Below are positions 28,242 to 63,130 of a DNA stretch of 64,000 bases, in pieces. The DNA lies in NCBI GenBank assembly GCA_044892525.1, contig CM097885.1:6946001-7010000 (forward strand), in the 5' to 3' direction. Every line of letters starts with the position of its first letter. Positions within the stretch are counted from its first letter, which is position 1. A program made the translations under genes and the position numbers. Source of the DNA: Schmidtea polychroa (lineage: Eukaryota). Under the pieces are notes generated by a model. That model did no database searches and was not told the DNA's origin. It saw only the letters and a program-made list of their open reading frames with translations.

Positions 28242-28319
<78 letters not shown>

Positions 28320-36148: not shown

Positions 36149-36684
36149 AGTAGAGGGATAGCGGCCCACTAAACCAGCGGCCCTCTAGGACAAAGACATA
36201 CCCCCTCCCCTCCCCCGCCATTTTATTTTTTTTTCAAGGTCAAATTTTAAACAAAGACATATGACTCATCAAGGTCACTGAAACAAAGACCATGACTCAC
36301 CCGATGACTCATTCAAGGTCATATGACTCATCCGATGCCTCATTCAAGGTCATATGACTCACCCAATGACTCATTCAAGGTCATATGACTCATCCGACGA
36401 CTCATTCAAGGTCATATGACTCATCCGATGACTCATTCAAGGTCATATGACTCATCCGATGAGTCATGCTAAATTTTTTAAAATTTAAATTCTCAGAGTT
36501 CCCGCCAATGGTTTTTTATTATTTAATAGCTCATTCGAAAGATATTTGAATGGTGAGTATTTGAGACCATCGAAGGTCTATGGAGGTTCAATAACCTTCA
36601 AAGAGTTCAATGGTATTGGTTACACTCAACAGCTCACAAGGGTATTATTATTACTATTATTATAATTATTATTATAATTATTAA

Positions 36685-36778
<94 letters not shown>

Positions 36779-36818
36779 ATTATTAATATTATTTTTATTG
36801 TTATTATTATTATTATTA

Positions 36819-36909
<91 letters not shown>

Positions 36910-36917
36910 TTTATTAC

Positions 36918-36997
<80 letters not shown>

Positions 36998-38853
36998 TTT
37001 ATTTAAAAAATGTTTAAACTTGAAAACTATCACATGTTTTCAAAATAATAATAAAAATACAAATATTAAAATTATTATTACGATTATACTGCTGCCGTAA
37101 TTTTTTTGCTGCAACTTTTGATTACGCAATTTTTCAGACTATAGTGAAGGGGTCTCGATGGTCCTGGAATTTTCAATACAAAAAAATTTTTTCAATACAA
37201 AAACGATGGTCCTGGAATTTTCAATACAAAAAAATTTTTTCTATACAAAAACGATGGTCCTGGGATTTTCAATACAAAAAAATTTTTTCTATACAAAAAC
37301 GATGGTCCTGGGATTTTCAATACAAATAAAATTTTTTCAATACAAAAAGGTGGTCTCACTAAAAAAGCATGGATTTTTCAGACTATAGTGAGGTGAGTCT
37401 CTTGGTCCTGGGATTTTCAATACAAAAAAAAATTTTTCTATACAAAAACGATGGTCCTGGGATTTTCAATACAAAAAAAAATTTTTCTATACAAAAATCC
37501 GACTACCAATAAAAAAGCATGGATTATTCACGCTATAGTGAAGGGGTCTCGATGGTCCTGGGATTTTCAATACAAATAAATTTTTTTCAATAGAAAAAGG
37601 TGGTCTAATCTAAAAAAGCCAAGGATTTTTCAGACTATAGTGAGGCGGTCTCGATGGTCCTGAGATTTTCAATACAAATAAAATTTTTTCAATACAAAAA
37701 CGATGGTCCTGGGATTTTCAATACAAATAAAATTTTTTCAATAGAAAAAGGTGGTCTACACTAAAAAAGCCAAGGATTTTTCAGACTATAGTGAGGGGGT
37801 CTCGATGGTCCTGAGAAATAGGTGGTCTACACTAAAAAAGCCAAGGATTTTTCAGACTATAGTGAGGCGGTCTCGATGGTCCTGAGATTTTCAATACAAA
37901 TAAAATTTTTTCAATACAAAAACGATGGTCCTGGAATTTTCAATACAAATAAAATTTTTTCAATACAAAAACGATGGTCCTGGGATTTTCAATACAAATA
38001 AAATTTTTTCAATAGAAAAAGGTGGTCTACACTAAAAAGCCAAGGATTTTTCAGACTATAGTGAGGTGAGTCTCCTTGGTCCTGAGAAATAGGTGGTCTA
38101 CACTAAAAAACGTGTTAAATTTTTCAATTAAAGTAAATAATGGTTCTAAAAAATTAAATTAAAGTAAATAATGGTCCTAAAAAATTAAATTATAGTAAAT
38201 AATGGTCCAAATTTTAAAATTAAAGTAAATTATGGTCCTAAAAAATTAAATTAAATAATGGTCCTAAAAAATTAAATCAAAGTAAATTATGGTCCTAAAA
38301 ATTTAATTAAGGTCCTAAAAATTAAATTAAAGTAAATTAAGGTTCTAAAAATTAAATTAAAGTAAATAATGGTCCAAATTTTTCAATTAAAGTAAATAAT
38401 GGTCCTAAAAATTAAATTAAAGTAAATTAAGGTTCTAAATTTTAAATTAAAGTAAATTAAGGTTCTAAAAAATTAAATTAAAGTTAATTAAGGTCTAAAT
38501 TTTTAAATTAAGTAATCAATGGTAAAAAATTTTAAATAAGTAAATTAAAGTAATAATTTTTAAATTAAGTAATCAATGGTAAAAAAAAAAATTTAAATAA
38601 GTAAATTAAAGTAAGATTTTAAAATTTATTAACAAAAAATAGAAGGTGTTTGAGAATTGAAATTTTTTAATGAAAATTTTTATGGAATAATTTTTTTAAG
38701 TAATTTTTTAATGGAAATTTTTATGGAATAATTTTTTTTTAAGTAATTTTTAATGGAAATTTTTATGAAATATTTTTCAACGATAAATTTAGATGGAAAA
38801 ATTTAAGATAATTTCAATGAAATATTTTTCAAAGTCAAATGAAAATTTAAATG

Positions 38854-38894
<41 letters not shown>

Positions 38895-38968
38895 TATCAA
38901 CCAAATACATAAAAATGAACTAGACACATAAAAATCTACCAAATAACAAATGTAAAGATATAAAATTT
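36149..38968. repeat. Left TIR (~2.8 kb): 31-bp, (TTA)n, ~42-bp and ~27-bp arrays
   Basis: Reverse complement of 52331-55178 apart from repeat-number differences. Confidence 0.9.
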
Positions 38969-41900
38969 AGTCAATAAAATTAGTCCTCATCGGACAAAAT
39001 AACGTCATCGATATCGATGTCATCTTCTTCATTAAATTCTTCCTCATCTTCTCCATCATTTGTCCATCATTTTCTGAAACATCTTCTCCAACATTTTCTG
39101 AAACATTTTCTGCAACAATTTCTCCAACATTTTCTCCAATATTTAATTCACTTAATCTTACATGCCCATATGCAAGACTAGCATTTTTCCCCACCCAAAC
39201 CCTTTTGTCATCTTTGTTAGTTAGTGCTATTTTTGTGTTTTTAATTGTAAAAATTTGATGATTTTTGCTTGTTATTTTAGTCTGAGGAACCGAAAAAATC
39301 TGGTTAGTGTTATAACAATCCAGGTATGACTGATGTTTTATGTCACTACCTTTCAATGTTACACCTTTAGCCTTTTTTGTTTCCTCATCACCCAACAAGC
39401 TATAACATTTAGGTCTAAGAAAAACCCACTCCTTATATTTAAGACCTTTATTCTCGTCTTTGAACTTTCCAATGACAGAATCAAGGTTCTTACTATATAA
39501 GGAATGACAACTATTGTAATTGGAAGTATCCAATAAATTATCTCGAACCATTGCAGGTAAAAGAACCTCAAGTTTGCAGTTAATGACTTCGAGGAAAAAA
39601 GAATCTGTATCACCTGCAACGATATTAATTTTACAATTAAACTCATTGCGAAATGATTCCAGATCCTTATATTGCAATTCATACATTCTAAGTTTAGATA
39701 GATCAAGTACAGATTGACCAATGTAACTCGGTCTATCTAAACATATAGAATCTGAATTCAATAGTGCTGCAATTAAATTATCTGCTATTTTAATAGATTT
39801 TTTAAAAGTCGGTTTTGACGAATATTTAACTAATTTACCGGCAGTTGTACAAAGACGAAGATTCATTCTTCTCTTTAAATTTTCAACTGTTTTGCCGTAT
39901 AAACTATTATTTTGCAATTTATAATAATTTTTATCTAAGTTATTTACGCTTTTTGATCTTAATTCGGTATTTGTATCTATATATTTTTTAAAAATTGGTG
40001 ATTGCTTAAATCTTACACCCTATTTACACGTGTTACTTTAACACCAAGTTCTAAATATAATTTTAATAATCTCCAATGAATAACATAATTAGATTTTGGA
40101 AGATGAGTTAATAATAATTTTTCAACCTTAGACCCAGCAGGTTTCATTTTTTCAGCAGCTACAGGGAAATCATCCAACTTATCATGAAGCTCAGAAGGAA
40201 TTACAAGATCAACTTCAAGTGTGTATCCATAAGACAAAGATTCAAGATTTAAATTCCTACATTCATCCATTATTTTATCAAATCCATCAAGAACCCAACA
40301 AAATTCGCCACAAGGTAATGATTGACTTAAAGCCCACCCATAAAGATTATTAATATCTATATAAAGTAACTCGGTGTTCTCGTCGGTTTTTACGTAATGC
40401 TTATTCACAAAAGTAAGACCGCCTCTTATTCCACCCTCATAAAAGCTAAACATTTCGTTTTCAGTTATGAGTTCAATTGGTTCATTTAAAGACATTAATG
40501 CAGAAGACCAAGACATGCCTGGAATTCCGAAATAATTCAAAGGTTCTAATCTATTGTGAGCAATTGATTTCAACCTAAACTGATGAAAGAAATCAGCCAA
40601 AAGAAAACAATCAAGTTTTAGGTAGATCATCATATAATCTAATAAAGTTCTGCAATTAGATTCTACCCAAATCTCCTGAGCTTTTTCATACTCAAGCTCA
40701 GTGACACCCTCCCAGATTGGTGGTAATTCATACGTAGTTTGTAGAACATCTAAAGAAGTGGCGAAATTATAAGGGAAGATTCCTTTTTCACTTACTATGG
40801 TGCCAGAAAAAGCAGAATTAGTAAAAGGCAAAGAATTCAAAGTTTTGACTGCTTTAGCCAAAGAATCATTGACAAATTGATATGAATCAATGAATCTTAG
40901 GCTAATTTTGCCTATATGAGCAATCAAAGATATAAATTTTTCCGTAGTTATTGGGATGCACCCTAAATTCCAATTTTTAAATTTATTTAATCCATATTTA
41001 AGTATATGATGCATATCGTATCCCTTCAAGTTGTGAAATACGATAGGCAAAATTTTATTTATTTTTCTATTTACGTTACATGTGCTACAAGCTGCACCCA
41101 AGTATTTGCCCGTAAAATGATCGTGATCTCTAACAGGATCCACGATAGATTTCAAACAAAGATAACAAACCGTTGAATTAATGAATTGTTGTTGCTCATT
41201 TTTAGTTAATTTAATCATTGGTTTCCTACCCATTTTATAATAAAAAGGAAGAACCTTATTTAATGCTATATCCTCTATAGCACTTAAAAAACTCTCGACG
41301 CAATCTAAACCTATGAACTGCTGATAAGATTTAGATCCGTCAAAGTTATTTACTAGTAAAAGACCGGCAGATATTGGCATGTGTCGCTGAAAATGATCAT
41401 TATCACAAGGTAAAATAGCCTCAAAATCGGCATAAACTACGAAAGGAGGAGTTACTGTTTTCGACCAGTCAGTAAACTGTAAGAATTTATTTTGAGGGAA
41501 AGTATAAAGAGTAGTTCCTAATTGATTGCGTTTGCATAATATTTCATGTTTTTCTAGTGCGTTTCTATTTTTAAAACCATTTAAACATCGATGACACCAT
41601 ATTGATTGTATGCGTGTAGGACAACTAGTGTTTATGCGGCAATTCAGTAACCTATTTAAATTGCTTATAGCAATGTAATGGAAATTGTTCCCTTTATTTA
41701 ATAAAAGTAAATTAATTACTGTTCCATTTAAAACTTTGGAACGATGTATAATGTCTAAATGGGGGTGTTTTAAAACGTAATTATCTATTAATTGTTTGTT
41801 ATTGTCATAAGAAAAAACATTAATTATTAAACCAGGATTTTTGGCCTCGAATTTTCTAATATCTTTTAATTTCATTGGTAAGTCTAATGGATTATATATT

Positions 41901-43102
41901 AACTCAGATAAATTATAACTAGATGTCCTATTTCTAGCATAACTACTAACCTCATCATATTTTAAAATAGCTAAAATGCTATATAAAAAACATGAATCGT
42001 CGGTGTTTTTTACATTAATTAAGCAATTTTTATTTTTTAGACAAGTAGGTAGTTCAATGAAACTCTTACCACTTAATCTACTTAGCCTACTTATCTTTGT
42101 TATGGTGAAGTGAATTTCAGTTATTTTTTTTATGATCCAGCTACTTCCTAACTCTGTGATATTACTTATTTTCTCGTTTAGTTCCCTAATGCCTTCGTCA
42201 AAAAATGAGGCAGTTAAAGGTTTTGCGTAATTGGAAATATTATTAACCTTTATTTCCCCGTCTTTTTCAAATTCGATTGTTATTCCGAATTGAATTTTGA
42301 CGGAGCCTAATTCGTTAATAATATCTCGTAATTTTATAATTAATTGTTCTGGAAATATTATTTCCTTTATATTCAAGTTACTTGTATTTAGACTTAAAAT
42401 TTGATGTGTACCCCTTAAATCTTTTTGTACTATGGGTACATTACCTCCTATTTGTACATTAGTAGTCGAAGAGTCGAGTGAAAGATTATCAAATTCATTA
42501 TTGGGTTCACCTACATCCCAAGAGTCGAGTGAAAGATTATCAAATTCATTATTGGGTTCACCTACATCCCAAGAGTCGAGTGAAAGATTATCAAATTCAT
42601 TATTGGGTTCACCTACATCCCAAGAGTCGAGTGAAAGATTATCAAATTCATTATAGGATTCATCAACTAATCCGACCTGGGATTCAACAAAAGGCAATCC
42701 ATCATTGGATTCAGCAAAAGACAATCCATCATTGGATTCAACAAAAGACAATCCATCATTGGATTCAGCAAAAGACAATCCATCATTGGATTCATCAACT
42801 AATCCGACCTGGGATTCAACAAATGTATTTAATTTAATTTTTTTATTAGTAGTATTTATTTCAATAGTTGAAGGACGTTTAAAAATAACATCTTTTTTAG
42901 AATTGAACCTATCTAAATGTTGTTTATGCTTATTATAAAAGACGCTATATGTTAAGGGCTCGCTAATCTTACATATGGGGCATATAAAAAAAGTTTTATT
43001 ATAGTATTTTTTAGAATAATAATTCTCCATTATAGAATGGCAATTATTATGTTCTTTCGACGAACAATAATTTGGGTAAAGTATACCTAAAAATATATAC
43101 AT
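38967..43102 (-). CDS. Protein-primed PolB, two ORFs joined by a frameshift at ~40015-40020
   Basis: YADFEA, DHDH.TG, FHNLKGYD, FIDSYQF, KGIFPY, YIDINNLYG, NNSLYGK, GDTDS, RPKCY. True start uncertain; possible splice acceptor at 43087. Confidence 0.93.
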
Positions 43103-45373: not shown

Positions 45374-46597
45374 TTATACCAAAACAGTACGAGTAGATGT
45401 AATTTGAATTTCTTTTTCAAAAACTCCATATACGATTACAGAAACAGCTTCAGTAAGTGAAGATGCGAATTTAATATCTAATCGCAAATTTCCACTTTGT
45501 GGTAACTGACTTTGATGAAGATCAAAATCTGGTGCCAATACGAATGTAAAGAATGGATACTTGCTCTTAAAATCAGACATGGTGATACCACAATTCATAT
45601 TTTTATTTAGATAACCCATATTTCTAATAATCGATTGCATATAACTTGTACTATAATCATCTTTCTCAAAATCTTGACTATATTTTTCGCGATAATCACT
45701 TCCTTTACTTAAAGTTATGGACTTGACATTAAAGTGATCAAATAAAGAAAATGATTCTGAAAACGATCCACTAAATCTTTTACTAGATTGAAATGCAACA
45801 AGTATAAAATTAGGTAGTCGTCTATCTCCAAATATTTGTTCTTTATAAAAAGAGGAAGAACCAATAGGTAATGAGAAATCAACAACTTCTTTGCTTCTTA
45901 AAGGATAAATTGCATTTTTGGTAGACAGACCAATTTGATGTCCTGCCAAAACCGATGGTTCAACACGAACTCTTCTAACCATTAATTTTGCGTCTAATAA
46001 TAAAATTTTCGGTTCAATTTTCGCACAAGTTAAACTAAGTGTTGGATTTGATCTTGTTAATTTAATTTGAACACTAACACCTGGTAGTAAATATTTAGGT
46101 TGATCAAAGAAATCAAATTGAAGTGGGGAACATAAAGAAAAGGATTTTGATTTTTCAATCCATGTTTTTCTCGTAAGATCTTTGTTAGTATACCCCATTC
46201 CACCTAAAGATGTTCGTTTAGTATCTCCGTCATAATTTATAAGTGTTTCAATTAATGCTTTGTGGGCAAATCTATCATTTGATCCTTCAACTTTGATTGA
46301 ATTAAAAATTAATTCAACATCTTTAAAAAGAGTTTGGAAGAAGAAATTATTTGGAATTACTTCTGATTCGCCTAAATTCTCACCTAAATTATTAACAACT
46401 TTCAATTGAATATATAACAAAGTATCATTCAAATCTAAATATTCAGTCTGCGATCCATTTATGTAAAATTGAATCGAAGAAGAACCAGCATCTGTAATTG
46501 AATTTCTTGGGTATACATCTTCAAATGCTCCATGTTCAATCACTGCTTGGGGAGAAGGTCTATCAAAAAGACATAATTCTGATTTAGCACTAATCAT
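45374..46597 (-). CDS. Major capsid protein (Polinton PY type)
   Basis: KSELCLF..Q..IE, YLDLNDTLLY, QPKYLLPGV, AIYP, GNLRLDIKF. Confidence 0.92.
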   Translation of the reverse strand: MISAKSELCLFDRPSPQAVIEHGAFEDVYPRNSITDAGSSSIQFYINGSQTEYLDLNDTLLYIQLKVVNNLGENLGESEVIPNNFFFQTLFKDVELIFNSIKVEGSNDRFAHKALIETLINYDGDTKRTSLGGMGYTNKDLTRKTWIEKSKSFSLCSPLQFDFFDQPKYLLPGVSVQIKLTRSNPTLSLTCAKIEPKILLLDAKLMVRRVRVEPSVLAGHQIGLSTKNAIYPLRSKEVVDFSLPIGSSSFYKEQIFGDRRLPNFILVAFQSSKRFSGSFSESFSLFDHFNVKSITLSKGSDYREKYSQDFEKDDYSTSYMQSIIRNMGYLNKNMNCGITMSDFKSKYPFFTFVLAPDFDLHQSQLPQSGNLRLDIKFASSLTEAVSVIVYGVFEKEIQITSTRTVLV

Positions 46598-46992
46598 TTT
46601 TCAAAGATGGTACCATATCCTTTCATTCTTTTGTTTATATGTTTCTTCATAATTTTTCGGCGTTTAAGTATTCCGCCTTTTTGTTCTTTATCATTTTTAA
46701 ATACATCGGATACTTTATTAATTACTTCAGGTAAATGTTGCATCACAGCTGGTAATGATTCTTTAATTTCAGAAATTGCATTTGATTTTAAAGCAGGCAA
46801 GATATTTGCATTGTTATTTATTACATCATTAGCTGTTTTCATACCAAAATTTCCTATTCGTTTAAGAATTGGAAGTGCAAATCTACCTATTGTCTTCAAC
46901 CAACCGGTTCCATATTGTTTACCAACAAAATATGGTAAATCACCACCCGATTGGTTACTACTATAAAAATGTATTATGTCAGGATTACTCAT
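46594..46992 (-). CDS. Putative virion core protein
   Basis: QSGG..QYGTGWLKTIGRFALPILK, basic C-terminus; sits between penton and MCP. Confidence 0.75.
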   Translation of the reverse strand: MSNPDIIHFYSSNQSGGDLPYFVGKQYGTGWLKTIGRFALPILKRIGNFGMKTANDVINNNANILPALKSNAISEIKESLPAVMQHLPEVINKVSDVFKNDKEQKGGILKRRKIMKKHINKRMKGYGTIFEK

Positions 46993-48001
46993 TTATTTTA
47001 CGAAAATGTAATGTCAAGTATGTTTTATCTTCTTTTCCAAATATATATTTTCCACTATCATCTCGTATATTGATTTCTATATTGTTTATATATGAAGACG
47101 ATACAGGTAAGTACATTGGATTCTTTTCAATTATTTGTACTAAATCATCTTTTTTATGTTTTTCCACCCAAATACATTTCAAAAGAGGGACCAATGTATC
47201 ACCAACAATAATTGGTTCGATAATATTTGTATAGATCATCAATTGTTGATTGCGTTGTAATACTTCAGGTTCTTTAAAACCAATAATAAGTTTGTCAGTA
47301 TATGCTTCTTCTAATAAACCTAAACTATTAGCTAAAAATTTACTAAATTGAACTTTACTGACATCATCATCCATTACAATTTTAACGATTTTTCCTTTTT
47401 GAATATCAATAGATTTAAATGGACGAGGATAAAAGAGTGATAGTTGATCATTTATTTGTGAAAGATCTGTAATGATATTTTCTTCGAATGTATCTGTATA
47501 CTCGACATCGTAATAATATTGTATAGTTAATCGAATTGTATCAAACTTTATTTTTCGATTATTTGGAGGAATAGTGATTTGGTTCAAGGTTTTTTTAAAA
47601 GTTATTTCTTTTTCTGAAAATCCCAATTTTTGCGCTTCTTTAATACTATCGAATTCTACTTTAAAAGGAAAATATTTACAATTAATGTTCAATGTATTTC
47701 CATCAATATATATTAAATAAAATGGAGAGTCGTGACTGATTGTATATTCATTTTTTTCTTGGTTAAAGTAAAAGTATTCATAACTTGTATGTAATACACT
47801 TTTACTATATTTGACATTTGAATTACTGTAAAAAGGAAAATAATTATACACAAAGGTAAAGTCCATGAGAGCTACTTCCCATTCACCATCCAAGTAAATA
47901 GGATTTTGAAATTCAACATTAAATTTACCAGCTTCATTATTTGGATGAGTCTGAGGACAACTATTAGAAGGTAAATTCACATAAAAATCTTTTTTAATCA
48001 T
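46985..48001 (-). CDS. Minor capsid protein (penton) paralogue 2
   Basis: FYVNLPSNS..WEVAL..IYTNII..VGDTLVPLL..LHFR. Confidence 0.9.
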   Translation of the reverse strand: MIKKDFYVNLPSNSCPQTHPNNEAGKFNVEFQNPIYLDGEWEVALMDFTFVYNYFPFYSNSNVKYSKSVLHTSYEYFYFNQEKNEYTISHDSPFYLIYIDGNTLNINCKYFPFKVEFDSIKEAQKLGFSEKEITFKKTLNQITIPPNNRKIKFDTIRLTIQYYYDVEYTDTFEENIITDLSQINDQLSLFYPRPFKSIDIQKGKIVKIVMDDDVSKVQFSKFLANSLGLLEEAYTDKLIIGFKEPEVLQRNQQLMIYTNIIEPIIVGDTLVPLLKCIWVEKHKKDDLVQIIEKNPMYLPVSSSYINNIEINIRDDSGKYIFGKEDKTYLTLHFRKINE

Positions 48002-49019
48002 TTATTTTACGAAAATGTAATGTCAAGTGTGTTTTTGTATCTCTACTAAATTTTATTAATTTTCCACTATCATCTCGTATATTGATTTCAATGTTGTTTA
48101 TAGAAGAATTAGAAATTGGTAGATACATTGGATTCTTCATTTCTAGTTGGACAATTTCTCCTTGTTCATATTTTTTTATCCAAATGGATTTCAATAACGG
48201 AACTCTTACGTCTCCAACAGTCAATGGTTCGATAATATTCGAGTAAATAAACATTTGTTGATGATGATTAAATAATTTTGGAATTTTTGTTCCAATAATT
48301 TCTTTCTCTGTAAATGTTTGTTTCTTTAATCCCAATGTTTTTGTTAAATTTTTATCAAAGATTATTGATGAAATGTTATCAGCAAGACTTATTTTAACCA
48401 ATTCATTATTTTGTATTTTTAAATCTTTAAAGGGAGACGGATTAATTGTCATTAACTGACCATGTATTTCAGATAAAGTATTGATGTATAGTTCATCTTC
48501 GAAATAATGTTCAAATTTTGTTTTTTCAACAACACTTATAATTATACCAAATTGATCAATTGTTTTATCTTCTGTAAATTTTGGTAATTTAATTCGCAAA
48601 TGATCACTATCACTAATAACCGATACTGATTTTAATCCAAATTTAATAGCATGTTCAAAATCTGGAAACGTTATTTTAAATGGAACATGTGGACAAACAA
48701 CAACCAAATTCTCATATCTTTCAATGAACATGTCAACTTCAGGAGTATTTTTAGGATTTATTACTTCAAAGGTTCGATTTGAATTATTTATTCTAAAATA
48801 TTTAATTTCTTCATCCATCTTTACTTTTTCATATTGTATCAATGAATTACTGTAATAAGGAAAAGTATTATACACAAAGGTAAAGTCCATGAGAGCTACT
48901 TCCCATTCACCATCCAAGTAAATAGGATTTGGAAATTCGACATTAAATTTACTAGCTTCATTATCGGGGAAAATAAGAGGACAACTATTAGAAGGTAAAA
49001 TAATATAAAAATCTTTCAT
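47994..49019 (-). CDS. Minor capsid protein (penton) paralogue 1
   Basis: Same motifs; middle domain orthologous to 23733-24764. Confidence 0.9.
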   Translation of the reverse strand: MKDFYIILPSNSCPLIFPDNEASKFNVEFPNPIYLDGEWEVALMDFTFVYNTFPYYSNSLIQYEKVKMDEEIKYFRINNSNRTFEVINPKNTPEVDMFIERYENLVVVCPHVPFKITFPDFEHAIKFGLKSVSVISDSDHLRIKLPKFTEDKTIDQFGIIISVVEKTKFEHYFEDELYINTLSEIHGQLMTINPSPFKDLKIQNNELVKISLADNISSIIFDKNLTKTLGLKKQTFTEKEIIGTKIPKLFNHHQQMFIYSNIIEPLTVGDVRVPLLKSIWIKKYEQGEIVQLEMKNPMYLPISNSSINNIEINIRDDSGKLIKFSRDTKTHLTLHFRKIND

Positions 49020-49024
49020 AATAT

Positions 49025-50173
49025 TTATTTAATCAATTGATTTTCGGATATCCAAGATGGAGTTTCATATCCATGCCATTTAACATAGTATTGTTTATAT
49101 TTACCATCTTTTTTGGTTTTTAAAATCTTTTGAATTCTAAATATTGTAGGAGCTGGAATTACTTGGAGTTCTTGTTCATAGAATTTACCAGTGATTGGTT
49201 TGTTTTCATGATCAACTATCACATACATGACAGGATTCTGTTTTGTATCGATTTTAAAAATTTGATATACTTCATCACTCCAATTATTATCAAAGTTTTT
49301 GATGAATGGTGAAGAATTGATTTTACTAATTCTTACATGATCACCAACCTTGTATTTCGGTTTATTGATTTTTTCTGACTTTGTTTGATTTTTAGTAAAA
49401 TCAGCAGGTGTTTGTCCTTTTAATCCTCTGTGTGGTGAATGATTGTAACTGAAAATAATTTTTGGCAAAACATTTATCCAAGTTTTATTACCTTGATATA
49501 CAAAATATTTTTTCAAGCGTTTTCTTAAAGTTCGATTAAATCGTTCTACGTGAGCAGCTTTGAACTGAGAAAATACCGAGTAATGGTTTATTCCTTTGAT
49601 AACCTCTTTAACTTTGCTGTTATAAAATTCTTTACCTAAATCATATATTTAAAAATTAATTAATTAAATTTAATTACCTAAATCCGTTTGTAAATTAATA
49701 GGTTTACCATCTGCAAACATTTCTTTTATCGCATCAGCCATTTCATTTGCAGATTTAGTTTTTGTAGGAACAGCACGAGCATATCTATTAAAAACATCTA
49801 TACAAGTCAGAATATATTTGTACCCCTTGTTAATTTTTGAATAAGGTATCATTTCCATCAAATCCATTTGCCATACATCATTGTTTCCAATTGTTTTGTA
49901 TGGTCTTGTTGGAAAACGTTTCAACATTGGTTTATTTAAACTATATGCTAATTGATTAGATAACCATTTCTGAGTTTCTTTCTTTGAATTATTCACTCGT
50001 TTTGTTAATTTTTCTACGCCACCAAAACCATCTGGATCTTTTGGGTTTGTCCATATGGTTTTTAACTTTTTCTCTATTGTTTTCACTTTTTTCACTTTTG
50101 TTTTCACATTTGTTTTCACTTTTGTTTTCATTTTTTCCACTTTTGTGTTGGTTTTGTGATACGTTTCCTTCAT
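49025..50173 (-). CDS. rve integrase with chromodomain, spliced (intron 49636-49677)
   Basis: WQMDL..QTDLG|KEFYN..HVERFNRTL..YYVKWHGY..SWI. Confidence 0.9.
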
Positions 50174-50243
50174 TATTACAACAAGTTGTCAAAATATTAA
50201 AATCTACAATATTTTTATTTGGTAATGAACTCTTGATACCCAT
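49989..50243 (-). CDS. Small overlapping ORF with MGxxxS start and CC motif
   Basis: MGIKSS..NILTTCCNNEGN; conserved as NILTSCCNNEGN in element B. Confidence 0.45.
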   Translation of the reverse strand: MGIKSSLPNKNIVDFNILTTCCNNEGNVSQNQHKSGKNENKSENKCENKSEKSENNREKVKNHMDKPKRSRWFWWRRKINKTSE

Positions 50244-50569
50244 TAAGAACTTAATGATGAGATTGCACTAATTGCAGATAAGACTATAGGAATTAATGCA
50301 CCCAAGAACCCTCCTTTTTGTTTATATATTATCTTTCTCATTAGACGACGATTTTTTGTATCAACTAGAGATAAAAGTGATCTTTTATGTCTTTGCAATA
50401 CTAATCTTTTAGCTTTAGTTATATTTACATTACCGCGGACAACATTTATAATAACTTAAAGTAAATCATCAATAACAAATGATGGAAAAGACTGTAAAAT
50501 TGATATTCGTTTCGAATTTGGTGCCTTTATTAAAGCATTAAAATATGGTAAACTCCGTTCAAATTTCAT
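50243..50569 (-). pseudogene. Basic protein with pX-like C-terminus and one in-frame stop (50456-50458)
   Basis: MKFERS..DDLL*VIINVVRGNV..KQKGGFLGALIPIVL. Confidence 0.75.
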
Positions 50570-50598
50570 TATTATTATTAATTTACGCGACGGATTGT

Positions 50599-50751
50599 TT
50601 ATAATTTGATCCACTTCTTGATTTGTTTCTTAGTTTTTGTACTTTTTGTACTTTTTGATCCACTTTTTGTTTTCTTTGTACGTTTTGTTTTCTTGGTAAT
50701 TTTCTTCGAAACACTTGGAAGATTTTTAACAACTACTTTTTTAAATGACAT
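50599..50751 (-). CDS. 50-aa lysine-rich protein, putatively DNA-condensing
   Basis: MSFKKVVVKNLPSVSKKITKKTKRTKKTKSGSKSTKSTKTKKQIKKWIKL; fills the intergenic slot. Confidence 0.6.
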   Translation of the reverse strand: MSFKKVVVKNLPSVSKKITKKTKRTKKTKSGSKSTKSTKTKKQIKKWIKL

Positions 50752-50770
50752 GATTAATTTTATTTAGTTT

Positions 50771-51394
50771 TTAGTTTTGTTTATAAATCGTAACACCGTT
50801 TATATTAAAAATATCAGTTCTAATACGCATATCATCTGGACATTGTTGTGTAAAATCAAAAAATAAATATCCATGAGGAATTTTTGTTGCATCTTGGAAT
50901 GAATCAATCAAAAATTTTCTATTATTTGGATAAGCTTGTCTTGCAAGAAAATCTATTATTGTTTGATCTCTAGGATTTTTGAAAATAATTAAATATTGGA
51001 CATTTAAATTACGTGTTCTATGACTTCCACCTTGATGAAAAAGATTTTGTGTAATGAAAATAACTGTAACTCCACAATGTCTACTGATTTTTGTAAATAA
51101 ATTATTAAAATCTTTTTCTTTATTTGCTTCCTGGTACAGATCATCGATAATAATAACATCACCTTGGCGTAATCTAGATGACCAATTTTTATCAAATCCT
51201 TTAATTATTGTCATTTTTAATTTACAGAAACTGTTTTGAGTCAATCCATGTTCTTCATCTGCACCTCGATGCCAATATATTTTATTAAATTTAGATTTAA
51301 ACATGTTTGATTGTAATAAATTACATACAAATAAAGTTTTCCCGCTTCCACTAGGTCCTACTATTTGATATACTGCGTCATTTCTTAATTCCAT
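50771..51394 (-). CDS. Packaging ATPase (A32/FtsK-like)
   Basis: GPSGSGKT, IIIDDL, SRH, ITQNLF, FKNPRD, PHGYLFFD. Confidence 0.95.
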   Translation of the reverse strand: MELRNDAVYQIVGPSGSGKTLFVCNLLQSNMFKSKFNKIYWHRGADEEHGLTQNSFCKLKMTIIKGFDKNWSSRLRQGDVIIIDDLYQEANKEKDFNNLFTKISRHCGVTVIFITQNLFHQGGSHRTRNLNVQYLIIFKNPRDQTIIDFLARQAYPNNRKFLIDSFQDATKIPHGYLFFDFTQQCPDDMRIRTDIFNINGVTIYKQN

Positions 51395-51444
51395 TTTTTA
51401 ATTAAATTATTTTATTTAATTTGTTTATAATTACAATAATTAGA

Positions 51445-51921
51445 ATGATCAGCAACATTAATTATAGAGGAAGATGTGTAGTTAATGGAATGAAGTTTCC
51501 ATCAGGAAAACCTCAACATGTCGTGGACAGAAGTGGAAAATATCCAATTTTATTCTTCAAGAGCGGGAAATGTAGGATAATGGGATGTAAGAAACCATTA
51601 CAGGAAGGCGATCTCAAATATCACATTCAAGATTTACAAATCCAATCAATTACATTAACGCTAGATATGGGTACATGCAGTGATTTAAATGCATTGTCAA
51701 GGAAAACCGATAGTTACTACGAGCCTGAAATATTTCCAGCTTTACGTATTCTCAAGTATAACCCCCTATGTGTAAATGTTTTTTCAAGTGGGAAAGTTGT
51801 TATATTAGGGATTAAAACATTTGATTATTTTAATCAAATTCAAGAAATTCAGAAATTCATTAAATCATTAACTATAAATATCACAACAAATGAAGAAATA
51901 TTGGAATATTTATTAAGTTAA
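51445..51921 (+). CDS. TATA-binding protein (TBP)-like protein
   Basis: Two TBP half-repeats: ILFFKSGKCRIMGCK and YEPEIFPAL..VNVFSSGKVVILGIK (host TBP reads YEPELFPGL..LIFVSGKVVLTGAK). Confidence 0.85.
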   Translation: MISNINYRGRCVVNGMKFPSGKPQHVVDRSGKYPILFFKSGKCRIMGCKKPLQEGDLKYHIQDLQIQSITLTLDMGTCSDLNALSRKTDSYYEPEIFPALRILKYNPLCVNVFSSGKVVILGIKTFDYFNQIQEIQKFIKSLTINITTNEEILEYLLS

Positions 51922-51984
51922 TTAAATTAATTTAATTAATTGTGTTTAAATTAACTGAATATCTACAATAACAAAAATTCAAAA

Positions 51985-52332
51985 ATGGATGACGATAAGC
52001 AAGCTTACATATTCCAGACTATATTAACGAAGATGGAAGAATTGTTCCCGAATATAAAGAACAGACTTTCATATTGTGCTCCGGAATTATTAGCTTATAG
52101 AATCAAGCAATTAACAGGGATCAATATAGAAGAACTTATACGAAGACATTTCGAATCTGTACAAGAATCAATATTTAAATGCATAGACGATTGTGAAGTA
52201 TGTATGGATCCGATGAAATTACCTTGTCCGTTTAGATGTAGATGCTGCCAAGAATATAAGATGAAAGAAGTTGTTCATATTTTACTAGCAGAATTAAGAA
52301 GAGCTTATTACAAGCAAATATTGGATGAATAA
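51985..52332 (+). CDS. Cys-rich hypothetical protein, possibly Zn-binding
   Basis: 115 aa, CIDDCEVC..PCPFRCRCC; AAAATG start; ends at the TIR boundary. Confidence 0.65.
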   Translation: MDDDKQAYIFQTILTKMEELFPNIKNRLSYCAPELLAYRIKQLTGINIEELIRRHFESVQESIFKCIDDCEVCMDPMKLPCPFRCRCCQEYKMKEVVHILLAELRRAYYKQILDE

Positions 52333-54288
52333 ATTTTATATCTTTACATTTGTTTGTGTTTTATGTGTCTAGTTCATTTTTATGTATTTGGTTGATATAT
52401 TATTACTATTTTTATTATTCCATTAAAATTTTCATTTGACTTTGAAAAATATTTCATTGAAATTATCTTAAAATTTTCCATCTAAAATTATCATTGAAAA
52501 ATATTCCATAAATATTTCCATTAAAAATTACTTAAAAAAAATTATTCCATAAAAATTTCCATTAAAAATTACTTAAAAAATTATTCCATAAAAATTTTCA
52601 CTAAAAAATTTCAATTCTCAAACACCTTCAACTTTTTGTTAATAAATTTTAAAATCTTACTTTAATTTACTTATTACATTACATTAATTTACTTATTTAA
52701 AAATTATTACTTTAATTTACTTATTTAAAAATTATTACTTATTTAAAATTTTTTACCATTGATTACTTAATTTTAAATTTAGACCTTAATTAACTTTAAT
52801 TTAATTTTTTAGAACCTTAATTTACTTTAATTTAATTTTTTAGAACCTTAATTTACTTTAATTTAAAATTTAGAACCTTAATTTACTTTAATTTAATTTT
52901 TAGGACCATAATTTACTGTATTTGAAAAATTTAGAACCATAATTTACTTTTAATTTAATTTTTAGAACCATAATTTACTTTAATTCAAAAATTTGGACCA
53001 TAATTTACTGTATTTGAAAAATTTAGAACCATAATTTACTTTAATTTAATTTTTAGAACCATAATTTACTGTAATTTAATTTTTTAGAACCATAATTTAC
53101 TTTAATTGAAAAAATTTGGACCATAATTTACTTTAATTCAATTTTTAGAACCATTATTTACTTTAAATTTAATTTTTGGACCATTATTTACTGTAATTTA
53201 ATTTTTTAGAACCATTATTTACTTTAATTGAAAAATTTGGACCATAATTTACTGTATTTGAAAATTTGGACCATAATTTACTTTAATTTAATTTTTAGAA
53301 CCATTATTTACAGTAATTGAAAAATTTGGACCATAATTACTTTAATTTAATTTTTAGACCCATAATTTACTGTAATTTAATTTTTAGGACCATTATTTAC
53401 TGTAATTTAATTTTTTAGAACCATTATTTACTTTAATTTAATTTTTAGGACCATAATTACCTTATTTGAAAAATGTTGACCATAATTTACTTTAATTGAA
53501 AAATTTGGACCATTATTTACTTTAATTGAAAAATTTACCACGTTTTTTAGTGTAGACCACCTATTTCTCAGGACCAAGGAGACCACCTCACTATAGTCTG
53601 AAAAATCCTTGGCTTTTTTAGTGTAGACCGCCTTTTTGTATTGAAAAAATTTTATTTGTATTGAAAATCCCAGGACCATCGTTTTTGTATAGAAAAAATT
53701 TTATTTGTATTGAAAATCCCAGGACCATCGTTTTTGTATTGAAAAAATTTTATTTGTATTGAAAATCTCAGGACCATCGAGACCGCCTCACTATAGTCTG
53801 AAAAATCCTTGGCTTTTTTAGTGTAGACCACCTTTTTCTATTGAAAAAAATTTATTTGTATTGAAAATCCCAGGACCATCGAGACCCCTTCACTATAGCG
53901 TGAATAATCCATGCTTTTTTATTGGTAGTCGGATTTTTGTATAGAAAATTTTTTTTTGTATTGAAAATCCCAGGACCATCGTTTTTGTATTGAAAAAATT
54001 TTATTTGTATTGAAAATCTCAGGACCATCGAGACCGCCTCACTATAGTCTGAAAAATCCTTGGCTTTTTTAGTGTAGACCACCTTTTTCTATTGAAAAAA
54101 ATTTATTTGTATTGAAAATCCCAGGACCATCGTTTTTGTATTGAAAAAATTTTTTTGTATTGAAAATCCCAGGACCATCGAGACCCCTTCACTATAGTCT
54201 GAAAAATTGCGTAATCAAAAGTTGCAGCAAAAAATTACGGCAGCAGGGGAGCTACTATCTACCTACTAATAATGATGATAATAATGAT

Positions 54289-54335
<47 letters not shown>

Positions 54336-54341
54336 TAATAA

Positions 54342-54392
<51 letters not shown>

Positions 54393-54502
54393 GTAATAAA
54401 GGTAATAATAATAATAATAATAAGTAATAAAGGTAATAATAATAATAATAATAATAATATAATAATAATAATAATAATAACAATAAAAATAATAATAATA
54501 AT

Positions 54503-54578
<76 letters not shown>

Positions 54579-55178
54579 TTAATATTAATAATAATAATTA
54601 TAATAATAGTAATAATAATACCCTTGTGAGCTGTTGAGTGTAACCAATACCATTGAACTCTTTGAAGGTTATTGAACCTCCATAGACCTTCGATGTTCTC
54701 AAATACTCACCATTCAAATATCTTTCGAATGAGCTATTAAATAATAAAAAACCATTGGCGGGAACTCTGAGAATTTAAATTTTAAAAAATTTAGCATGAC
54801 TCATCGGAGGAGTCATATGACCTTGAATGAGTCATCGGATGAGTCATATGACCTTGAATGAGTCATCGGATGAGTCATATGACCTTGAATGAGTCGTCGG
54901 ATGAGTCACATGACCTTGAATCAGTCATCGGATGAGTCATATGACCGTGAATGAGTCATCGGGTGAGTCATATGACCTTGAATGAGTCATCGGATGAGTC
55001 ATATGACCTTGAATGCGTCATCGGGTGAGTCATGGTCTTTGTTTCAGTGACCTTGATGAGTCATATGTCTTTGTTTAAAATTTGACCTTGAAAAAAAAAT
55101 AAAATGGCGGGGGAGGGGGGAGGGGGTATGTCTTTGTCCCAGAAGGCCGCTGGTTTAGTGGGCCGCTATCCCTCTACT
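52331..55178. repeat. Right TIR of element C, with an internal terminus at 54267
   Basis: Mirror of 36149-38968. CTATCTACCTACT at 54255-54267. Confidence 0.9.
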
Positions 55179-56100
55179 CGCTGCAACCTGTTACTTTTTT
55201 CAACGTTGTATTTCCAAATGTATTTCTCTTTAGATTCCTCCTTTTTTCCTAATAAAATACTTCGAAAGTGACCTCATCCCTCGATATTTGTTTTGTGCAC
55301 TTTCATATTGTACTGTGAACCTTACTATTACTTTAACGACAAGCGGACTCGCTTTCAGTGATCAGAGAGAAAAGTTGGGAAATGTGGTTTCTGTGAATTG
55401 TGGAAATTTTGTATCAGTCATAGATCATTTGGCGGCATATGACCCAGTGTTGAAAGAACTTATTGAACAACCTGGTAGGGCCAACCAAATATTTAAGCCC
55501 AACAGTGCAGAATGAAGTAATAGAGATAATTTTTATTGATTTTGGTTCTGAATGATGCAGTTTCTCAAGTACACGAACTATCACAATTCATTGATGTTAT
55601 TCAGCGGATTTATACGTTATACGGATTTATTGGTTCCAGTTTCAAACGTTAGAACATTCTGTCATTGGTTACAACTAAATTGAATATCAAACTCAAGGCA
55701 CTGTGCCTAACAAGATGGTCATCCCAGGAAGAGTGCATAGCAGATATATTGAGAGCATTGATAAATATAAATCTGATCGAGAAAAGAAAAGATATAATTG
55801 AATTTGTTTATCTTCTGGTTGTGCTCACAAAAAGTTTTCAAAGTGTGAATATTATATCAAAAATTGCTCCAGGCTGATAAAATTGACTTAATGAGTGTTT
55901 CAACTCTGCTTAAAATTATGTTTGAACTCATGTCAGCATTCAGGAACAAATCGAATGAATACTATATTGCCAAGGAAATGGCAGTCTCTCTTGCCCACCA
56001 ACCAATGGTGTGTAGAGACAAATTTTGGCTTATCGGTTTAGAGGAATGCGGGTTGTGGTAAATAAATTTGGCATACTGCCATCACAGATGATCATCTATT
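55179..56100 (+). mobile_element. Degenerate hAT-family (ZMYM1-like) transposase remnant
   Basis: LAFS..NCGNF..LAAYDPVLKE, YLSPTVQNEVI, LKALCLTRWS in broken frames. Confidence 0.7.
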
Positions 56101-58888: not shown

Positions 58889-61800
58889 TTAATAATATAT
58901 CAACCAAATACTATACAACACATAAAAATTAACTAAACACATAAAAATAACTAGACACATAACAAAACATATAAACATTAACTAAACACATAAAAATGAA
59001 CTAAACACATAACAAACATAAAAATTTACCAAACAAATAACAAATGCGTAGGTATAAACTTTTATTTATTGAAATTAGTCCTCATCGGACAAAATAACGT
59101 CATCGATATCGATGTCATCTTCTCCAAAATCTTCATTTAATTCTTCCTCATCTTCTCCAAAATCTTCATTTAATTCTTCCTCATCTTCTCCATCATTTTC
59201 TCCAACATTTTCTGAAACATTTTCTGCAACAATTTCTCCAACATTTTTTCCAATATTTAATTCACTTAATCTTACATGCCCATATGCAAGACTAGCATTT
59301 TTCCCCACCCAAACCCTTTTGTCATCTTTGTTAGTTAGTGCTATTTTTGTGTTTTTAATTGTAAAAATTTGATGATTTTTGCTTGTTATTTTAGTCTGAG
59401 GAACCGAAAAAATCTGGTTAGTGTTATAACAATCCAGGTATGACTGATGTTTTATGTCACTACCTTTCAATGTTACACCTTTAGCCTTTTTTGTTTCCTC
59501 ATCACCCAACAAGCTATAACATTTAGGTCTAAGAAAAACCCATTCCTTATATTTAAGACCTTTATTCTCGTCTTTGAACTTTCCAATGACTGAATCAAGG
59601 TTCTTACTATATAAGGAATGACAACTATTGTAATTGGAAGTATCTAATAAATTATCTCGAATCATTGCAGGTAAAGAACCTCGAGTTTACAGTTAATGAC
59701 TTCGAGGAAAAAAGAATCTGTATCACCTGCAACGATATTAATTTTACAATTAAACTCATTGCGAAATGATTCCAGATCCTTATATTGCAATTCATACATT
59801 CTAAGTTTAGATAGATCAAGTACAGATTGACCAATGTAACTTGGTCTATCTAAACATATAGAATCTGAATTCAATAATGCCGCGATTAAATTATCGTCTA
59901 TTTTAATAGATTTTTTAAAAGTTGGCTTTGAAGAATATTTAACTAGTTTACCGGCAGTTGTACAAAGACGAAGATTCATTCTTCTCTTTAAATTTTCAAC
60001 TGTTTTGCCGTATAAACTGTTATTTAGCAATTTATAGTAATTTTTATCTAAGTTATTTATACTTTTTGACCTTAATTCTGTATTTGTATCTATATATTTT
60101 TTTAAAATTGGAGATTACTTAAATCTTACACCCTATTTACACGTGTTACTTTAACACCAAGTTCCAAATATAATTTTAATAATCTCCAATGAATCACATA
60201 ATTAGATTTTGGAAGATGAGTTAATAATAATTTTTCAACCTTAGACCCAGCAGGTTTCATTTTTTCAGCAGCTACAGGGAAATCATCCAACTTATCATGA
60301 AGCTCAGAAGGAATTACAAGATCAACTTCAAGAGTGTATCCATAAGACAAAGATTCAAGATTTAAATTCCTACATTCATCCATTATTAAATCAAATCCAT
60401 CAAGAACCCAACTAAATTCGCCACAAGGTAATGATTGACTTAAAGCCCAACCATAAAGATTATTAATATCTATATATAGTAACTCGGTGTTCTCATCGGT
60501 TTTTACGTAATGCTTATTCACAAAAGTAAGACCGCCTCTTATTCCACCCTCATAAAAGCTAAACATTTCGTTTTCTGTTATGAGCTCAATTGGTTCATTT
60601 AAAGACATTAATGCAGAAGACCAAGACATACCAGGAATTCCGAAATAATTCAATGGTTCCAATCTATTGTGAGCAATATATTTCAACCGAAACTGATGAA
60701 AGAAATCAGCCAAAAGAAAACAATCAAGTTTTAGGTAGATCATCATATAATCTAATAAAGTTACGCAATTAGTTTCTACCCAAATCTCCTGAGCTTTTTC
60801 ATACTCAAGCTCAGTGACACCTTCCCAAATTGGTGGTAATTCATAAGTAGTTTGGAGAATATCTAAAGAAGTGGCGAAATTATAAGGGAAGATTCCTTTT
60901 TCAGAAACTATAGTGCCAGAAAAAGCAGAATTAGTAAAAGGCAAAGAATTCAAAGTTTTGACTGCTTTAGCTAAAGAATCATTGACAAATTGATAAGAAT
61001 CAATGAATCTTAAGCTAATTTTGCCTAAATGAGCAATCAAAGAAATAAATTCTTCAGTCGTTATTGGGATGCAACCTAAAGTCCAATTTTTAAATTTATT
61101 TAATCCGTATTTAAGTATATGATGCATATCGTATCCCTTCAAGTTATGAAATACGATAGGCAAAATTTTATTTATTTTCCTATTTATGTTACATGTGCTA
61201 CAAGCTGCACCCAAGTATTTCCCCGTAAAATGATCGTGATCTCTAACAGGATCGACGATAGATTTCAAACAAAGATAACAAACAGAAGCACTAACAAATT
61301 GACGTTGTTCAATTTTCGTTAATTTAATCATAGGTTTCCTACCCATTTTATAATAAAAAGGAAGAACCTTATTTAATGCTATATCCTCTATAGCACTTAA
61401 AAAACTCTCGACGCAATCTAAACCTATGAACTGTTGATAAGATTTAGATCCGTCAAAGTTATTTACAAGTAAAAGACCGGCAGATATTGGCATGTGTCGT
61501 TGGAAATGAAGATTATCAGAAGGTAAAATAGCCTCAAAATCGGCATAAACTACAAAAGGAGGAGTTACTGTTTTCGACCAGTCACTAAACTGCAATAATT
61601 TATTTTGAGGGAAAGTGTAAAGAGTTGTTCCTAATAGATTACGTTTACATAATATTTCATGTTTTTCCAGTGCGTTTCTATTATTAAACCCATTCAAACA
61701 CCGATGACACCATAATGAACGTATGCGTGTAGGACAACTAGTGTTTATGTGGCAATTCAATAACCTATTTAAATTACTTATAGCAACGTAATGGAAATTG

Positions 61801-63130
61801 TTTCCTTTATTTAATAGTAGTAAATTAATTACAGTTCCATTTAAAACTTTGGAACGATGTATAATGTCTAAATGTGGATGTTTTAAAACGTAATTATCTG
61901 TTAATTGTTTGCTATTGTCATAAGAAAAAACATTAATTATTAAGCCGGGATTTTTGGCCTCAAATTTTCTAATGTCTTTTAATTTCATGGGTAAATCTAA
62001 TGGATTATATATTAAGTCTGATAAATTATAACTGGATGTCCTATTTCTATATTGTCTAACAACCTCATCATATTTTAAAATAGCTAAAATGCTATATAAA
62101 AAACATGAATCATCGGTGTTTTTTATATTAATTAAACAATATTTATTTTTTAGACAAGTAAGTTGTTCAATGAAACTCCTACCACTTAATCTACTTAACC
62201 TACTTATCTTTGTTATAGTGAAGTGGATTTCTGTAATTTTTTTATAATCCAACTACTTCCTAACTCTGTAATATTAGTTATTTTCTCATTTAGTTCCCTA
62301 ATACCTTCATCAAAAAATGATGCAGTTAAAGGTTTTGCGTAATTGGAGATATTATTAACCTTTATTTCCCCGTCTTTTTCAAATTCGATAGTTATTCCGA
62401 ATTGAATTTTGACGGAGCCTAATTCGTTAATAATATCTCTCAATTTTATAATTAATTGTTCTGGAAATATTATTTCCTTTATATTTAAGTCGCTAGTATT
62501 TAAACTTAATATTTGATGGGTACCCCTTAGATCTTTTTGTATTATGGGAACATTACCCCCTATTTGTATTATATTTATTCCATCCCAAGAATCAAAGGAA
62601 GTGAATAATCCATCATTGGATTCAACAACCAATCCGACCTGGGATTCAACAAAAGGCAATCCGTCCTGGGATTCAACAAAAGACAATCCGACCTGGGATT
62701 CAACAAAAGGCAATCCGACCTGGGATTCAACAAAAGGCAATCCGACCTGGGATTCAACAAAAGACAATCCGTCCTGGGATTCAACAACCAATCCATCATT
62801 GGATTCAACCTCTAATCCAGCCTGGGATTCAACAACTAATCCGACCTGGAATTCAAAAGAAGAAGTATCTAATTTAATTTTTTTATTTGTATTATTTTTT
62901 TCTATAGTTGAGGGTCTTTTAAAAACACTATCTTTTTTAAAATTAAACCTATCTAAATGATTTTTATGTTTATTATAAAAAACGCTATATGATACAGGGT
63001 CACTAGTCTTACATACGGGACATATAAAATGTTTTATTATAATATTTTTTCGTCTAATAATTCTCCATTATAGAATGGCAATTATTATCATGTTCTTTCG
63101 ATGAACAATAATTTGGATAAAGTATACCTA
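57837..63130. mobile_element. Family-C Maverick fragment E (TIR + frameshifted pPolB 59075-63127, minus strand)
   Basis: AGTAGGTAGTTAG terminus. pPolB is highly similar to element C, with breaks at ~59670, ~60130, ~62240 and ~63050. Confidence 0.92.

Follow-up and report, generated by a model that had tools for sequence, protein, structure and literature searches.

The stretch of DNA studied here (the window, 64,000 nucleotides, nt) is from Schmidtea polychroa (assembly GCA_044892525.1, contig CM097885.1, positions 6,946,001-7,010,000 of the forward strand); coordinates below are window positions unless stated otherwise. It contains a Maverick element with an intact gene for a protein related to the TATA-binding protein (TBP) at 51445..51921 on the plus strand, coding for 158 amino acids (aa). 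Terminal inverted repeats (TIRs) at 36149..38876 and 52398..55178 enclose the gene, which diverges from that of an A32-like packaging ATPase on the minus strand (50771..51394; 207 aa; Pox_A32 29.2 bits, cut-off 22.8). The two start codons are 50 nt apart (51395..51444); in this gap the minus strand carries TTATAAACAA, 34 nt before the ATPase ATG. Next after the TBP-like gene is a Cys-rich open reading frame (ORF) of 115 aa (51985..52332, plus strand). An earlier note on this DNA had described an intact 158-aa ORF with the signatures FFKSGKCRIMG and YEPEIFPAL...VFSSGKVVILG, located inside the TIRs, divergent from the ATPase and followed by a Cys-rich ORF, and in all of these respects the locus is as described.

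A TBP-family protein with a predicted shortened first repeat

Pfam places the 158-aa protein in the TBP family (PF00352; 54.7 bits, E 9.3e-15, cut-off 22.9), the match falling in two stretches. The corresponding proteins of two sibling element families of the same genome, families B and C (the element in the window belongs to family A), score 62.5 and 57.7 bits, in one stretch only in each. By phmmer the protein matched 35 distinct TBP sequences of the PDB at E <= 2.3e-7, the best of them an archaeal TBP (1mp9_A, E 4.1e-12), and its residues 61-145 can be aligned to either repeat of these TBPs. The AlphaFold2 model, built on 34 relatives, has a mean pLDDT of 94.7 and a pTM of 0.83 and keeps the curved antiparallel beta-sheet saddle of TBP, with nine predicted strands. 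When the model was compared with the PDB by Foldseek, ranks 1-44 (E <= 0.001) were all TBP, with TMq of 0.62-0.71 over 162-181 columns, and the next matches were at E ~0.1. Alignment to 24 two-repeat TBPs by hhalign gave a probability of 99.6% and an E of 1.8e-24. An alternative genetic code was rejected, as all element ORFs are open in the standard code.

Residues 61-146 of the model make up a full S1-H1-S2-S3-S4-S5-H2 repeat, followed by a short additional C-terminal helix at 148-157. Residues 1-60 are predicted to form four strands (2-11, 25-28, 35-38 and 42-48) and no helix, the first helix not appearing before residue 81. In the hhalign alignment, residues 26-148 follow S3-S5 of repeat 1 and then pass straight to repeat 2, with a gap at H2 of repeat 1. 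Judging from the model, repeat 1 is more than short: both of its helices are lost while the sheet part is kept. Two complete tandem alpha/beta repeats, one of the criteria for a TBP, are absent from both the AlphaFold2 model and the hhalign alignment, and the gene product is best described, on sequence and predicted structure, as a divergent TBP-family protein that is carried by an element and has its first repeat shortened, a 'one-and-a-half-repeat' TBP. The divergent TBP identity and the shortened first repeat that had been proposed for this ORF are thereby confirmed, the latter in sharper form, with residues 1-60 consisting of strands only; the lack of a saddle fold, which had been named as grounds for abandoning the idea, is at odds with the saddle-type fold predicted here.

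Residue conservation was counted over 34 aligned members of the TBP-like family, all 34 of which have the truncated first-repeat architecture. In the first half, the conserved residues are N4 (32), N6 (33), Y7 (32), F18 (29), P23 (33), F38 (33), R44 (33) and M46 (34); those of the second half are S68 (33), E93 (31), E95 (33), F97 (34), P98 (31), N111 (34) and F113 (34). The best conserved stretch in common with cellular TBP is the E-P-E-(L/I)-F-P stirrup, kept by sequence at E93, E95, F97 and P98. In cellular TBP, this acidic C-terminal stirrup is the contact site for TFIIB, and the helical surface of the N-terminal half helps to dock cofactors and negative regulators. From the hhalign alignment and the alternation of side chains along the strands, we assume that N4/N6, L36/F38, R44/M46, S68/T70, N111/F113 and V119/L121 stand at the places of minor-groove-facing TBP residues. 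Likewise, F38, F97 and F113 presumably correspond to three of the four phenylalanines with which TBP kinks DNA, the fourth being perhaps F18 (29/34), in a remodelled loop. Several concave-face residues are changed with respect to cellular TBP, namely N6, R44, M46, S68 and N111. The pattern of conserved residues therefore points to a DNA face that is constrained but altered and to a TFIIB stirrup that has been kept, the N-terminal half being without its helical surface.

Distribution, selection and ancestry

The S. polychroa genome (781 Mb) holds 4190 candidates of the TBP-like gene. The best 150 of these were scored, and all 150 span residues 1-158, are free of stops and share 98-100% identity; because they are the best-scoring copies, they are uninformative on average decay. 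A Pfam-based search of the same genome led to further element families, and the 14 loci fetched comprise 12 encoding a protein of the 170-aa type (family B) and two of the 154-aa type (family C). Families A, B and C have a common layout, with the ATPase on one strand and the TBP-like gene on the other. Nine of the 12 family B loci have a full-length TBP-like ORF, and nine have a full-length ATPase, suggesting that the two genes decay alike in single copies. Between the three families, the TBP-like proteins are 54-56% identical, with pN of 0.29 against pS of 0.66-0.78 and a ratio of non-synonymous to synonymous divergence (dN/dS) of ~0.15-0.23, synonymous sites being saturated; the identity of the ATPases is 83-93%. 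As judged from these comparisons, the TBP-like gene is under purifying selection between families.

A full HMMER search returned 731 cluster representatives at E <= 1e-3 and 96 at E <= 1e-10, mostly of ~150 aa and matched over their whole length. The 123 proteins found in a word-index search were all from metagenome or run assemblies, with a precomputed PF00352 hit on 119 of the 120 listed. On metagenome contigs, 191 stretches encode a relative of the TBP-like protein, and 80 loci were kept. Among 81 loci examined, the TBP-like gene is accompanied by the ATPase in 28, the integrase core in 17, ORF407 in 10 and the DNA polymerase PolB in 6, counts that are lower bounds because most metagenome contigs are short. 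Gene order is conserved in the metagenome loci, running TBP-like gene, small ORFs, ATPase, integrase, ORF341/338, ORF132, ORF407 and PolB.

In a quick maximum-likelihood tree of 57 proteins, 30 Maverick-type proteins lie on one side of a branch with an SH-aLRT of 99. On the other side are 24 two-repeat TBPs, both of the intronless host TBP paralogues tested and one viral-contig TBP. As the two-repeat sequences carry no taxon names, the tree does not reveal the source lineage of the family. A TBP scan of viral contigs yielded one distant two-repeat TBP, on a contig of 44.7 kb. These comparisons indicate that the TBP-like gene is a lineage-wide gene of a Maverick group, not the capture of one copy.

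Among the TBP-family genes of the host itself, one is canonical and split by introns (124 bits on one repeat), and at least two others are paralogues with two repeats and no introns (202 and 214 aa). The genome also has at least 13 copies of an intronless TFIIB-like gene of 301 aa (zinc ribbon and TFIIB repeat by Pfam), at C1:23.85-24.19 Mb and C3:38.2-39.1 Mb. These copies form tandem-like arrays with ~8 kb spacing, and no Maverick genes adjoin them in the two stretches read.

Two classes of promoter

Upstream regions were taken as the 120 nt before start codons in the metagenome loci (L042-L121), with regions more than 70% alike collapsed; the background for ATAAAC is 7.5% per upstream window. 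This hexamer stands before the ATPase in 26/26 loci, before ORF407 in 9/9, before ORF341 in 8/8, before ORF132 in 5/5 and before the integrase in 10/12. Before the TBP-like gene it was found in 3/51 loci (Fisher p = 1.6e-17 for the TBP-like gene versus the ATPase). Seventeen of the 27 ATPase sites lie between -31 and -49. When sites are anchored on ATAAAC, Y is found at -1 in 54/57 and R at +6 in 56/57, giving a box of the form YATAAACR; 33/57 boxes read TATAAAC, and C is the first letter in 21/57.

The TBP-like gene is preceded by signals of another kind: TATAWAWR in 21/51 upstream regions (background 8.6%), GTATAWAW in 13/51 (background 3.3%) and the initiator-like (Inr-like) TCAT[AT]A in 29/51 (background 14%). 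In 8 of the 13 regions with GTATAWAW, TATA and TCA are 28-30 nt apart, the classical TATA-to-initiator spacing. Families B and C show the same split in their own genome, with ATAAAC at -33/-34 of the ATPase, -65 of the integrase and -19 of ORF338/341, and with no ATAAAC before the TBP-like gene, where TATA-type runs are found at -34 to -44. Within the window, eight TATAAACA boxes lie in gene sense at 46632..51429 on the minus strand (first A at 46638, 47089, 48101, 49098, 50325, 50602, 50784 and 51428) and none in antisense, compared with 0.59 on average, and 4 at most, in 1000 dinucleotide shuffles. There are, then, two promoter classes, YATAAACR before most element genes and TATA plus the Inr-like TCAT[AT]A before the TBP-like gene. 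This division is new here, and the YATAAACR box is undescribed for Mavericks in the literature searched.

The box signal appears only once strand and gene position are considered, TGTTTAWA not being enriched over the whole window (35 against 31.5 expected). A second sequence, TTAATTAAATTA, is common to two plus-strand upstream regions and was rejected as a general signal, with 4 occurrences in the window. Also rejected was a poly(A) signal as the meaning of the box, since the box is found in divergent intergenic regions without a same-strand upstream gene as well. A scan of viral contigs with the ATPase alignment, aimed at Mavericks without a TBP-like gene, found no relative. None of the sequencing runs recorded as RNA contains this stretch. 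The TBP-like ORF is covered by contigs from runs whose kind is guessed or unknown (one contig has 545 nt, 51484-52028), and these possibly represent DNA; one of the runs has two short loose ends of poly-T, at 50087 and 50141, that are too weak to be of use.

The Cys-rich companion ORF

The Cys-rich ORF appears from sequence comparison to be a young, lineage-restricted companion of the TBP-like gene. Its conserved cysteines are C31, C70, C73, C81, C85 and C87. The versions in families A and B are 32% identical, with a dN/dS of 0.21 and with six invariant cysteines and one histidine, and within its own genome the ORF is conserved only between these two families. It was not found in family C, and a hidden Markov model from families A and B matched nothing at E <= 1 among the metagenome ORFs. 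Pfam has no family for it, the Atlas gave no usable match, and a database search returned two matches only, at 97% and 85% identity. An AlphaFold2 model from 6 sequences had a pLDDT of 50.5 and was unusable. In family B the Cys-rich ORF overlaps the end of the TBP-like ORF, making co-transcription of the two plausible.

The remainder of the Maverick element

The window has one TIR-bounded Maverick copy (~36149-55178) and pieces of others at 18338-30194, 34854-36148 and 59071-63140. The TIR arms are 88-98% complementary, in pieces, with inner parts at 36201-38876 and 52398-55124 and outer ends at ~36149 and ~55178; the left repeat has internal tandem repeats. No 6-bp target-site duplication was found, the flanks reading TTCATC (36143-36148) and CGCTGC (55179-55184). 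The left TIR abuts the PolB end of another copy (34854-36148; 98.8% identity over 84 aa), a sign that Mavericks may have nested in, or rearranged with, one another.

The integrase (49025..50243, minus strand) has an rve core (35.5 bits, cut-off 32.6) and a chromodomain-like C-terminal end, the Chromo match of 22.4 bits lying under its cut-off of 25.1. It aligns by tblastn in a single frame over 350 aa. A 42-nt GT..AG insert interrupts this frame with three stops (~49636-49677, minus strand), and taking the insert out restores the expected T-D-L-G-K-E-F motif of the integrase core, for which reason it is probably a tiny intron; contigs from four sequencing runs of guessed or unknown kind showed no joint across it. 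A short ORF in another frame (49989-50243, minus strand) overlaps the integrase start. It begins MG..SLPN, ends CC and is kept in four distant relatives (L043, L051, L059 and L082), and a YATAAACR box is found ~33 nt upstream of its ATG and not of the integrase ATG. This ORF may be a 5' exon or an upstream ORF.

For the four conserved Maverick ORFs of 407, 132, 338 and 341 aa (45374..49019, minus strand), metagenome loci have homologues arranged in the same order. All four are candidate virion-module genes; no Pfam family was found for any of them. ORF338 and ORF341 (46985-49019) are tandem paralogues, 46% identical, with one copy in L050 and L082 and two in L062. The PolB, of the protein-primed type (38967..43102, minus strand), is in two frames (40013..43102 and 38967..39866), with a shift at ~40016-40019; tblastn to the single-ORF PolBs of L050 and L116 gave alignments of 844 and 288 aa in the two frames. 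The junction is letter-identical in 3/3 copies within the window (those of the 60129 and 35897 regions included), so the shift is a family trait rather than decay of one copy. A sibling PolB copy at 60126..61988 scores 72.7 bits for DNA_pol_B_2. Between PolB and ORF407, 2.3 kb (43103-45373) are without an ORF of 72 aa or more, the corresponding distance in relatives being ~650 bp (L050).

Among the element ORFs, Pfam recognised no protease or capsid family and no RNA polymerase subunit. The description of this copy as a complete Maverick hence needs qualifying: the TIRs, PolB, rve integrase and ATPase are present, while the PolB is frame-shifted, the integrase is interrupted, and neither a Pfam protease or capsid nor a target-site duplication was found.

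Proposed role of the TBP-like protein

We propose that the TBP-like protein is an element-encoded core-promoter factor, itself transcribed from a host-type promoter, that turns on the box-bearing genes via host TFIIB and polymerase II, and we give this proposal a little better than an even chance. What the analysis establishes is the predicted fold, membership in the TBP family, conservation in the Maverick lineage, purifying selection between families and the two promoter classes. The redirecting of host polymerase to element promoters, suggested in the earlier note, gains indirect support from the promoter classes and from the conserved stirrup. Under this scenario, the host machinery would first transcribe the TBP-like gene from its ordinary TATA-plus-initiator promoter. 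The product would then bind the element's own promoters, for which the candidate site is YATAAACR, ~30-35 nt upstream of the ATPase start and before most other genes. Host TFIIB and RNA polymerase II would be recruited there, and the replication and virion genes would come on as a second tier. The nearly complete curved beta-sheet, which the model predicts to be kept, is the DNA-binding face in TBP, and the C-terminal repeat appears whole, stirrup included; the two N-terminal-repeat helices, apparently lost, would belong to the surface where many host regulators of TBP dock. We infer the DNA binding, its target motif, the recruitment of TFIIB and the order of expression from these features.

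Several points weigh against this proposal. The TBP-like gene adjoins the packaging ATPase, which equally fits a role in packaging or replication. Many of the boxes before ORF407, ORF132 and ORF341 lie within the preceding coding region, where protein constraint could preserve them; the ATPase and integrase box sets alone are mostly non-coding. As 33/57 boxes contain TATAAA, they could be bound by host TBP itself, and ATAAACA resembles a forkhead-type site. The window's own family A has only 50 nt upstream of the TBP-like gene, with no clean TATA-plus-Inr. The metagenome loci are mutually related, and the counts are not fully independent despite the collapsing of regions more than 70% alike. 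Finally, the correspondence of residues to the contact residues of yeast and human TBP is tentative.

A more far-reaching form of the proposal is that this Maverick lineage has virus-style two-step transcription: host TBP would fire the TBP-like gene from its canonical TATA-plus-Inr promoter, and the product, without the regulator-docking helices but with the TFIIB stirrup, would use a re-tooled DNA face (R44, M46, S68 and N111) to read a private YATAAACR box before the packaging, integration and virion genes. This would be a polymerase II-hijacking switch that arose independently of the late-gene TBP mimic of herpesviruses and of which a single 781-Mb genome has thousands of copies. We advance this form tentatively and consider its chances to be well short of even.

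Other explanations fare less well. The TBP-like protein might be an architectural DNA-bending protein that marks or bends element DNA, for example the repeat-rich TIRs, for the ATPase, the protein-primed PolB or the integrase, without a role in transcription. In favour of such a protein are the position of its gene, next to that of the A32-like ATPase both in the window and at 28 loci, the conservation of the DNA-facing positions, and the loss of the repeat-1 helices, which strips away much of the surface that transcription cofactors use in TBP. However, the stretch that is best conserved is the stirrup, presumably the TFIIB contact as in TBP, the promoter dichotomy is left unexplained, and no TIR repeat has been tied to the protein, making an architectural role unlikely.

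Somewhat less probable again is a decoy or antagonist that titrates host TFIIB or occupies host TATA boxes, thereby damping host transcription or quieting the element. A conserved stirrup would serve this purpose, and with the regulator-docking helices missing, complexes with the protein could be dead ends. Yet a pure TFIIB trap needs no strongly conserved concave-face residues in both halves, and a decoy fits less well because the most strongly conserved first-half residues map to DNA-facing TBP positions. R44, M46, S68 and N111 differ from cellular TBP, suggesting another DNA target rather than competition at TATA, and the gene has been kept over deep divergence alongside virion and replication genes.

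We hold it just as improbable that YATAAACR is read by host factors, either host TBP or a forkhead-type protein, and that the TBP-like protein has an unrelated or accessory role. The TATAAA within 33/57 boxes and a core resembling forkhead sites are in keeping with such readers. Against them, the first T is dispensable (C in 21/57) while the trailing C and the next purine are fixed, which is presumably unlike cellular TATA boxes; the narrow placement of the box around -31 to -37 is in line with a core-promoter element; and the box is missing from one gene alone, that of the TBP-like protein (3/51). Recent neutral capture of a host TBP fragment as a functionless passenger, which the truncated look of the first repeat might suggest and which the earlier note had set as refuting its idea if confined to this copy, is scarcely credible and was rejected, given the same architecture in 34/34 aligned relatives, a dN/dS well under 1 between the three families that share the gene, host paralogues across the SH-aLRT 99 branch, 4190 genomic candidates and the company of Maverick genes on many metagenome contigs.

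With the TBP-like gene product, a known protein family gains a variant that is structurally new and whose carrier is unexpected. Mavericks, or Polintons, are usually described by their replication, integration and virion core genes, and to our knowledge little has been established about how these genes are switched on. If the proposed role is correct, Mavericks would have a directly testable regulatory hierarchy made up of an element TBP-family factor, a box before the other genes and a host-type promoter before the factor. The protein would also be a natural minimal TBP of one and a half repeats, one half being helix-free, useful for asking which TBP surfaces the recruitment of polymerase II needs. 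More speculatively, a private promoter code might help to explain the spread of the family to thousands of near-identical copies.

Comparison with known systems

Like cellular TBP and its TRF/TLF paralogues, the Maverick protein has a significant sequence match to the family, a saddle-type fold (TMq 0.62-0.71) and a complete C-terminal repeat with the stirrup, F97 and F113. Unlike in cellular TBP, its first repeat has ~60 residues instead of ~90 and is without H1 or H2, its gene lies on a mobile element, and the proteins form their own clade with a changed concave face. Nucleocytoplasmic large DNA viruses (NCLDVs), which bring their own RNA polymerase, also encode proteins with the TBP fold, and these gave the best matches in a viral-structure library (for example, Heterosigma akashiwo virus, Foldseek E 1.9e-8). 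The matched viral proteins differ in being longer (186-842 residues) and are 10-21% identical to the Maverick protein.

Closer to Mavericks, a 'TBP' gene is listed in the Fig. 5 legend for a polinton-related MELD virus, a midsize linear dsDNA element with an adintovirus-like PolB (Starrett et al., Virus Evol 2021, PMC8502044); it is a legend entry, and section 3.4 of that paper is without a description of structure, conservation or promoters. The view that TBP is unknown in Polintons should be softened in view of that legend. In the full-text literature on polintons or Mavericks together with TBP, TATA or TFIID, this legend was the one mention on a related element, within a coverage that is thin for subscription journals, so that an earlier description is possible. 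Sporadic TATA-binding-protein genes are also reported on mirusvirus-related elements of a green alga (PMC10675990).

To the herpesviral UL87/ORF24/BcRF1 proteins, which are large multidomain proteins, there are only weak fold matches in the same viral-structure library (Foldseek E 5.5e-3 to 4.6e-2). UL87/ORF24/BcRF1 is the TBP-like protein of a nuclear DNA virus without a polymerase of its own, and this late-gene TBP mimic reads a variant TATA element in late promoters and recruits host polymerase II (see PMC7498053). By analogy, the herpesvirus mimic would be the closest counterpart of the Maverick TBP-like protein in mechanism, though not a relative of it. If the role proposed here is correct, herpesviruses and giant viruses would have in the Maverick protein an independent counterpart to their TBP mimics, which bears on hypotheses connecting Polintons with the emergence of large DNA viruses.

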